Origin: a virus
Length of the DNA stretch: 60,645 nt
Strand: one strand, 5' to 3'
UHGV virus genome: UHGV-0175782
Shown here piece by piece: positions 59,650 through 59,957 of the stretch. How positions within the stretch are numbered: position 1 is the stretch's first letter; each line of letters opens with the position of its first letter. Position numbers and translations under genes: made by a program. The notes below the pieces were generated by a model, which was not told where the DNA came from, ran no database searches, and saw only the letters and a list, made by a program, of their open reading frames with translations.

Positions 59650-59835
59650 ATGCTAATAGGCTATGTACGCATATAGACAAATGAACAAAACACAGCTATG
59701 CAGTGAAAAGCACTTGAAAGCGCAGGATGTGAGCTAATTTTTGCGAATAAGGCGAGCAGCAAAAAAGCTGGGCACCCTGGGTTAAAAAAGGTTCTGCGTA
59801 TGCTTTCCAGAGGTGATACCCTAGTCTCGGACTAG
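59650..59835 (+). pseudogene. Decayed N-terminal fragment of a serine recombinase (invertase/resolvase) gene
   Basis: Single frame reads MLIGYVRI*TNEQNTAMQ*KALESAGCELIFANKASSKKAGHPGLKKVLRMLSRGDTLVSD*: the serine-recombinase N-terminus with two in-frame nonsense codons and truncation at palindrome 59819-59837. Confidence 0.6.
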
Positions 59836-59957
59836 GGACAACATTTCGAGAACAGTTTTCATTAGCGGCCAGCAGGCGCTAGATACATCGAATTGATGTG
59901 CCGCGCGATAAATGTACCTATTCTATCAAGATAAATTACACCGACGCGGCATTAGAA

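Follow-up and report, generated by a model that had tools for sequence, protein, structure and literature searches.

A truncated, nonsense-bearing remnant of the P1-type invertase gene cin beside a convergent Min-type invertase in a P1-like genome

In phages P1 and P7, the gene cin encodes a Din-family serine DNA invertase that inverts the C segment. The intact P1 gene has 186 codons and ends at cixL, beyond which lies the C segment in either of two orientations. A different arrangement belongs to the plasmid p15B of E. coli 15T-, in which the shortened 5' part of an invertase gene, named 'psi-cin', reportedly lies beside the invertase gene min; this is said to have been described in 1991 by Sandmeier, Iida, Huebner, Hiestand-Nauer and Arber. 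The same authors reportedly found the psi-cin enhancer to be inactive, and reactivable by two nucleotide substitutions. We analysed a stretch of 60,645 nucleotides from the virus genome UHGV-0175782 (the window hereafter) that contains an interrupted invertase-like frame at 59650-59827 on the plus strand. The relic is a genuine pseudogene fragment, already known from p15B.

Translated in a single frame, positions 59650-59837 of the plus strand give MLIGYVRI*TNEQNTAMQ*KALESAGCELIFANKASSKKAGHPGLKKVLRMLSRGDTLVSD*, letter for letter the product reported in a first-pass annotation of the window. As had been stated there, the frame is interrupted by two stops, TAG at 59674-59676 (codon 9) and TGA at 59704-59706 (codon 19), and contains no frameshift; it terminates at the TAG at 59833-59835. 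The likeness to the first 60 or so residues of an invertase or resolvase that the annotation had pointed to was fully borne out by similarity searches. Residues 1-59 of P1 Cin align by tblastn to 59650-59826 with 49/59 identities (83%, E 5e-29), and the relic aligns by BLASTP to the intact invertase of the minus strand (59958-60530) with 37/59 identities (63%, E 7e-26). The Pfam Resolvase profile PF00239 scores 37.6 bits on the relic, above its curated cut-off of 23.3 bits, and covers profile positions 2-68 of 145 only. Taken together, the BLASTP, tblastn and Pfam scores rule out a chance similarity to invertases. The stops and the partial profile match likewise agree with the earlier description of the interval as what nonsense decay and truncation have left of an ancestral serine recombinase gene, here an invertase gene.

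Several parts of a working invertase are missing from this fragment. The complete PF00239 catalytic domain of about 145 positions is absent from the relic, where homology to cin stops at codon 59, and a Pfam search returned no HTH_7 match in it, whereas HTH_7 is present in min. The catalytic serine of the Y-x-R-V-S-T motif is also missing, codon 9 being TAG in the relic and TCA in all intact alleles. The 59-codon stub amounts to less than half of a catalytic domain and lacks the DNA-binding domain altogether. It does not form an uninterrupted reading frame under purifying selection, and RefSeq leaves the interval unannotated.

The position of the relic identifies the gene from which it derives. 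In a megablast search of phage records with 59200-60645 as the query, 59200-59826 proved colinear with the lydC-cin interval of P1, P7 and their relatives, and the remainder of the query matched only two P1-like phages and the invertases of P2-like prophages. The alignment with P1 extends from the start of lydC to cin codon 59. Within it, 59561-59822 is 89.7% identical to P1 31570-31832, a block in which the P1 record annotates the cin promoters, the cin ribosome-binding site (RBS), the start codon and the recombinational enhancer. The left neighbour, common to P1, is the holin-like gene lydC (59259-59522, minus strand; LydC/phage holin family annotation in relatives). It is followed by the retained upstream region of cin (59561-59649, plus strand, aligned to P1 31570-31659), with the P1cin/P2cin promoter area, the RBS and the position of the promoter pseudo-cix, and then by the relic itself (59650-59827, plus strand). 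The relic thus occupies the position of P1 cin, beside lydC, in the same orientation and behind the same promoter and RBS region, and it has more in common with P1 Cin (83% identity) than with the neighbouring intact invertase (63%). By sequence and position, it is the resident cin itself, in its original place and orientation.

Since the colinearity with the P1 lydC-cin interval includes the promoter, the RBS and codons 1-59, the relic is not a second recombinase beside cin, as the first-pass annotation had it. The comparison with P1 that this annotation had proposed reverses its labels: the relic stands at the position of cin, and the intact gene is min, a foreign Min-type invertase. The relic, hereafter psi-cin, shares with cin of P1 and P7 its position, orientation, promoter region, RBS and enhancer position. 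It differs from P1 cin in being truncated after codon 59, in having TAG for the catalytic serine and TGA for Arg19, in lacking an HTH domain and in evolving neutrally. Whereas the intact P1 gene leads into cixL and the C segment, psi-cin is accompanied by neither.

The intact gene min (59958-60530, minus strand) is convergent with psi-cin and encodes a Din-family DNA invertase of 190 aa with Pfam Resolvase and HTH_7 domains. Its product matches UniRef Q05517 exactly and is 74% identical to P1 Cin; the closest solved structure is that of Mu Gin. Nucleotides 25-95 of min map to 6463-6533 of the p15B sequence X62121. A reversed invertase in a P1-like plasmid has been named 'Min p15B X62121' (PMC6906374). 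The sequence of this minus-strand gene, which had been called 'cin' in the earlier annotation, points to an incoming, foreign invertase of the Min type. Its cassette continues into a 3' flank (59890-59957, minus strand) that includes a terminator-like hairpin at 59952-59938, just past the min stop. This flank is held in common, at about 83%, with a chromosomal Min-like cassette of E. coli 2014C-3075, which adjoins the hyc operon, has no psi-cin and encodes a protein 96% identical to that of min. The DNA that the E. coli 2014C-3075 cassette has in common with the window starts only at about 59890 and extends rightwards.

Upstream of min, a predicted crossover (mix) site at 60588-60613 marks the edge of an invertible tail-fibre region that extends past the end of the window. 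Its core AAACGTTGGTTT, at 60592-60603, has one mismatch to AAACCNNGGTTT. The window itself holds the Min invertase and this one crossover-like site; the segment cluster lies past its end and was seen in near-identical relatives. In the near-identical plasmids, min is backed by a train of short tail-fibre gene segments and not by a two-state C segment. A 24-nt imperfect direct repeat (75%) was also observed upstream of the min start, at 60553-60576 and 60583-60606. The right copy contains the crossover core AAACGTTGGTTT; the left copy reads ATCGTTGGTATAGG and has the appearance of a second, degenerate site lying between min and the crossover site, perhaps a pseudo-site within the promoter region of min.

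We compared this arrangement with that of p15B through the coordinates quoted in the P1 GenBank record, which notes 89% identity between X62121 7147..7408 and P1 31570..31832 and 83% identity between X62121 6463..6533 and the enhancer region of P1. Under the assumption of one antiparallel coordinate system, the P1 blocks mapped onto the window predict 7147..7408 and 6463..6533 of X62121 exactly. Because both ranges are reproduced, the arrangement in the window agrees with that of p15B to the base. The endpoints of homology, the distance to the enhancer region of min, the convergence with min and the lydC neighbour are all as in p15B, and no difference is detectable by the coordinates quoted in the P1 record. 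The relic is thus a truncated 5' region of cin, convergent with an adjacent min and bounded by the X62121 endpoints, and the neighbouring gene, an exact match to Q05517, lies at the p15B position of min. We take the relic to be the psi-cin published under that name for p15B. The stub is an ordinary one, since the 1991 sequence of p15B already contains it.

The substitutions that psi-cin has accumulated differ in kind from those of intact cin. Its 15 private substitutions comprise 11 non-synonymous or nonsense changes and four synonymous ones, whereas intact cin alleles present two non-synonymous and 14 synonymous segregating sites (Fisher p = 0.001; counted in four of five intact alleles, the one identical to P1 being excluded). 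The first 59 encoded residues are nearly the same in all five intact alleles. In psi-cin, the change TCA>TAG removes the catalytic serine at codon 9 and CGA>TGA removes Arg19 at codon 19, and both stops are present in all of the 14 sampled copies, which come from phages, plasmids, IMG/VR contigs and a GTDB genome. Site diversity per 100 nt is 1.7 in psi-cin, 2.3-4.1 in flanking non-coding DNA and 0.9-1.1 in lydA/lydC. These patterns show that the relic has decayed neutrally.

Traces of the regulatory elements of cin remain. The recombinational enhancer survives as a remnant at 59668-59739, the equivalent of P1 31678-31749, which the P1 record lists as the enhancer. By analogy with the Hin enhancer, we presume its Fis cores to lie at 59671-59685 (proximal) and 59720-59734 (distal). 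The presumed proximal 15-bp core carries three private changes, G59671A and the two of TCA>TAG (59675-59676); the presumed distal core is unchanged relative to P1. Private changes in the presumed proximal core would fit an enhancer that is reportedly reactivable by two base changes. In the cin promoter, the candidate -10 element TATAAA reads AATAAA in the window. Scans for sigma-70 promoters detected the annotated cin promoters in neither the window nor P1 and are therefore uninformative on promoter decay.

Two other promoter-like sequences were observed around the locus. In P1, a sigma-70-like site, TTGATA-16-TAGCAT, lies inside cin codons 1-10 and points towards lydC (locus coordinates 3489-3462, minus strand). 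At 59650-59677 of the window, TCA>TAG makes the first hexamer TCTATA, and the promoter scan finds no site there. The sequence AAGTTACTT-4 nt-TACCAT, an LPdar-type late promoter on the minus strand, lies in a 46-bp stretch at 59200-59245 that matches, with 97.8% identity, part of the annotated U' tail-fibre assembly gene region of phage vB_EcoM-Ro157c2YLVW.

Homology to P1 ends abruptly at 59822-59827, after ...GATACCCT(A)GTC. The palindrome ccctagtc-tcg-gactaggg (59819-59837; 8-bp arms and a 3-nt loop), to which the first-pass annotation had drawn attention, is indeed present, corresponds to the predicted hairpin and straddles this breakpoint. The assertion that the relic ends exactly at the palindrome holds to within a few bases, although the homology stops inside the left arm. 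That arm is plain cin sequence, codons 57-59 (P1: CCCTGGTC), and the right arm consists of the first bases of the filler described below. The hairpin is weak (-7.2 kcal/mol, z = -1.0), and A59831G breaks one pair of the right arm in 2 of the 14 copies. The case for a gene cut off at a structured site is therefore weak. A role as terminator or conserved structure was rejected on the same values, on the lack of a T-run and on the polymorphism of the palindrome.

Between psi-cin and the min cassette lies a filler of 62 bp (59828-59889) that is known only alongside psi-cin. Distant BLAST searches of phages and E. coli genomes, together with exact-pattern scans of GTDB species genomes and IMG/VR, returned no donor for it outside psi-cin carriers. 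A 19-nt direct repeat, ACAACATTT(C)GAGAAC(R)GT, flanks the relic, with one copy in the lydC-cin intergenic region (59549-59566) and the other in the filler (59838-59856). Locally the repeat is better than chance, its score being reached by 1/2000 shuffles, and both copies are polymorphic among the sampled psi-cin copies. A genome-wide motif was discarded as an explanation, there being no further copies in the window.

The missing half of cin bears on the kind of event that truncated it. A tblastn search with Cin residues 60-186, covering the window and the corresponding locus (12-16 kb) of five relatives, matched only min, and an origin by inversion with a displaced cin 3' half was rejected because no second copy was present. 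Since this half is found nowhere else in the window or in the loci of the five relatives, the event was a replacement with deletion rather than an inversion. No convincing cix- or res-like site flanks the relic. The nearest core-like match, at 59587-59598 in the old cin promoter, has two mismatches, and matches at this level number 28 genome-wide where 29 are expected by chance. The suggestion of a nearby site that could still serve as a substrate for Cin is thus not supported: the match beside the relic is at chance level, and the good site, at 60592-60603, belongs to min.

At an identity of at least 98.4%, the full 441-bp junction region is found in 147 PLSDB plasmids and, among 5,426 complete E. 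coli genomes, in 160 (about 3%); approximately 250 further genomes have an intact P1-type cin instead. Stubs of cin are also found in two other lineages. In Salmonella phage SJ46 (KU760857.1), the stub is a 75-codon ORF free of nonsense codons that breaks near codon 78 (locus coordinates 1262-1486) and is followed by a reversed pin-type invertase 55% identical to Min (1618-2199). The plasmid pHNCF11W-130kb of E. fergusonii (NZ_CP053046.1) has a third stub (locus ~2610-2850), with a stop at codon 5 (TAT>TAA). Here the homology to cin ends after ...GTGGAAGA, at codon 78 and within ~2 nt of the SJ46 break, and a DapH/acetyltransferase-like gene and tail-fibre assembly genes follow.

Both resemble the window in that the 5' part of the resident cin was kept beside lydC after the tail-fibre module was replaced or rearranged, and SJ46 also resembles it in the reversed foreign invertase behind the stub. 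They differ from the window in their break at about codon 78, their right-hand partners and their states of decay, and the differences in breakpoint and right-hand sequence rule out that either represents the same event as p15B. Because these truncations are independent, replacement of the module with a junction inside cin is recurrent. A 'partial invertase orf' in pSvP1 and a delta-cin in pTZ20_1P (PMC6906374) are cin 5' stubs that can likewise be compared with psi-cin.

We consider it very probable that the stub and its promoter were left behind when a Cin/C-segment module was swapped, without homology, for a Min-type cassette, and that the stub, evolving neutrally ever since, serves no function. 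The ancestor would have had the P1 layout of lydC followed by cin, cixL and the C segment. A foreign cassette, comprising a Min/Pin-type invertase in opposite orientation and a multi-segment invertible region, would then have replaced the invertase and the tail-fibre switching module. The left replacement junction would have fallen inside cin after codon 58-59, with the 62-bp filler linking cin to the min 3' flank; by its look, the joining was probably non-homologous (illegitimate). What remained would have been the cin promoter region and 59 codons, and this stub, presumably free of constraint, would have drifted to acquire its two nonsense codons, one of them in place of the catalytic serine, along with replacements at eight further residues. 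The stub probably encodes nothing useful and is most likely inert, inversion being run, on this reconstruction, by Min and the enhancer inside min.

Other readings of the same data can be weighed against this replacement. The two recombinase-like sequences are convergent and just 130 bp apart, which might be expected if a second recombinase gene of another kind, such as one for a Tn3-type resolvase or an additional invertase, had once lain beside an intact resident cin. This is hardly conceivable, as the P1 cin promoter, the RBS and the position next to lydC belong to the relic and not to the intact gene, the relic exceeds the intact gene in identity to P1 Cin (83% against 74%) and the cassette of the intact gene is found independently in chromosomal prophage remnants; colinearity with P1 already refutes it. 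A distinctly unlikely alternative concerns the junction, which Cin or Min could have made by joining the quasi-site ATACC-CT-GGTCG (cin codons 57-60) to a secondary site near the incoming cassette. Cin uses quasi-cix sites at low frequency, and the homology block ends exactly after ...ACCCT (59822), at the central dinucleotide of this weak cix-like core. The resemblance to cix is weak, however: cores with as many mismatches are about as frequent in the window as expected by chance, and only ~6/12 positions to the right of the break match a cix half-site. Moreover, the breaks of SJ46 and E. fergusonii lie elsewhere, at about codon 78, and the searches for the filler returned no donor that would reveal the partner site.

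We regard it as highly unlikely that the stub has been kept for an action in cis, whether as a residual Fis/enhancer element for Min inversion, as an antisense promoter directed into the min 3' end or in the control of lydC. Such retention could account for the unchanged distal enhancer core (59720-59734) and the cin promoter region, much of which is intact relative to P1, for the presence of the stub in every p15B-type copy sampled and for the cin 5' end kept in two further lineages. The substitution pattern of the relic is nevertheless neutral, and the relic is as diverse as the non-coding DNA next to it; three private changes fall in the presumed proximal enhancer core, and the candidate -10 has gone from TATAAA to AATAAA. 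The P1 promoter-like site facing lydC inside cin is absent from the window, min has an enhancer region of its own, and the psi-cin enhancer of p15B was reportedly inactive. In any case, a neutral segment this short would be expected to persist in a lineage that has spread recently (at least 98.4% identity). Equally slim is the chance that the stub is not inert because its promoter, distal Fis site and hairpin modulate the Min switch through convergent transcription, as a Fis sink or as an auxiliary enhancer. Alternatively, the cin 5' end might have been kept in three independent module replacements because lydC regulation requires it, or because recombination is concentrated within the first 80 codons of cin.

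Under the preferred reading of a replaced module and an inert remnant, the stub matters little in itself and is of interest as a molecular fossil, one that would mark the left boundary of an exchange of tail-fibre and invertase modules between P1-like plasmid-phages and Pin/Min-type cassettes. Together with the stubs of SJ46 and E. fergusonii, it exemplifies how host-range modules have been repeatedly replaced in this phage family, with one junction inside the old invertase gene. For annotation, this indicates that 59650-59827 should be flagged as a cin pseudogene fragment and that the intact invertase of p15B-type elements should be named min, not cin.

Variation at min itself was observed in several relatives. 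Two IMG/VR contigs carry mosaic min alleles (the region corresponds to window 60132-60530), in which the 3' 170 nt match the window exactly while ~10% of sites are different over the 5' 400 nt. Such a pattern suggests that homologous recombination inside min swaps the 5' half of the invertase gene together with the adjoining tail-fibre segments. The Min module of other relatives has suffered secondary damage: pAVS0973-B has an IS26 inserted in min (locus coordinates 1939-3339), pGPEC128-620c has lost the min 3' end up to the spacer (2124-2454) and pD72-mcr1 carries an ISApl1-mcr-1.1 insertion in the invertible tail-fibre region (12070-15269). Finally, min of phage vB_EcoM-673R5 (ON470615.2) is annotated as two ORFs, Hin1/Hin2 (locus coordinates 6757-7328), and the psi-cin of this phage has two single-A deletions in A-runs; the split gene and these deletions may be homopolymer sequencing errors rather than biology.
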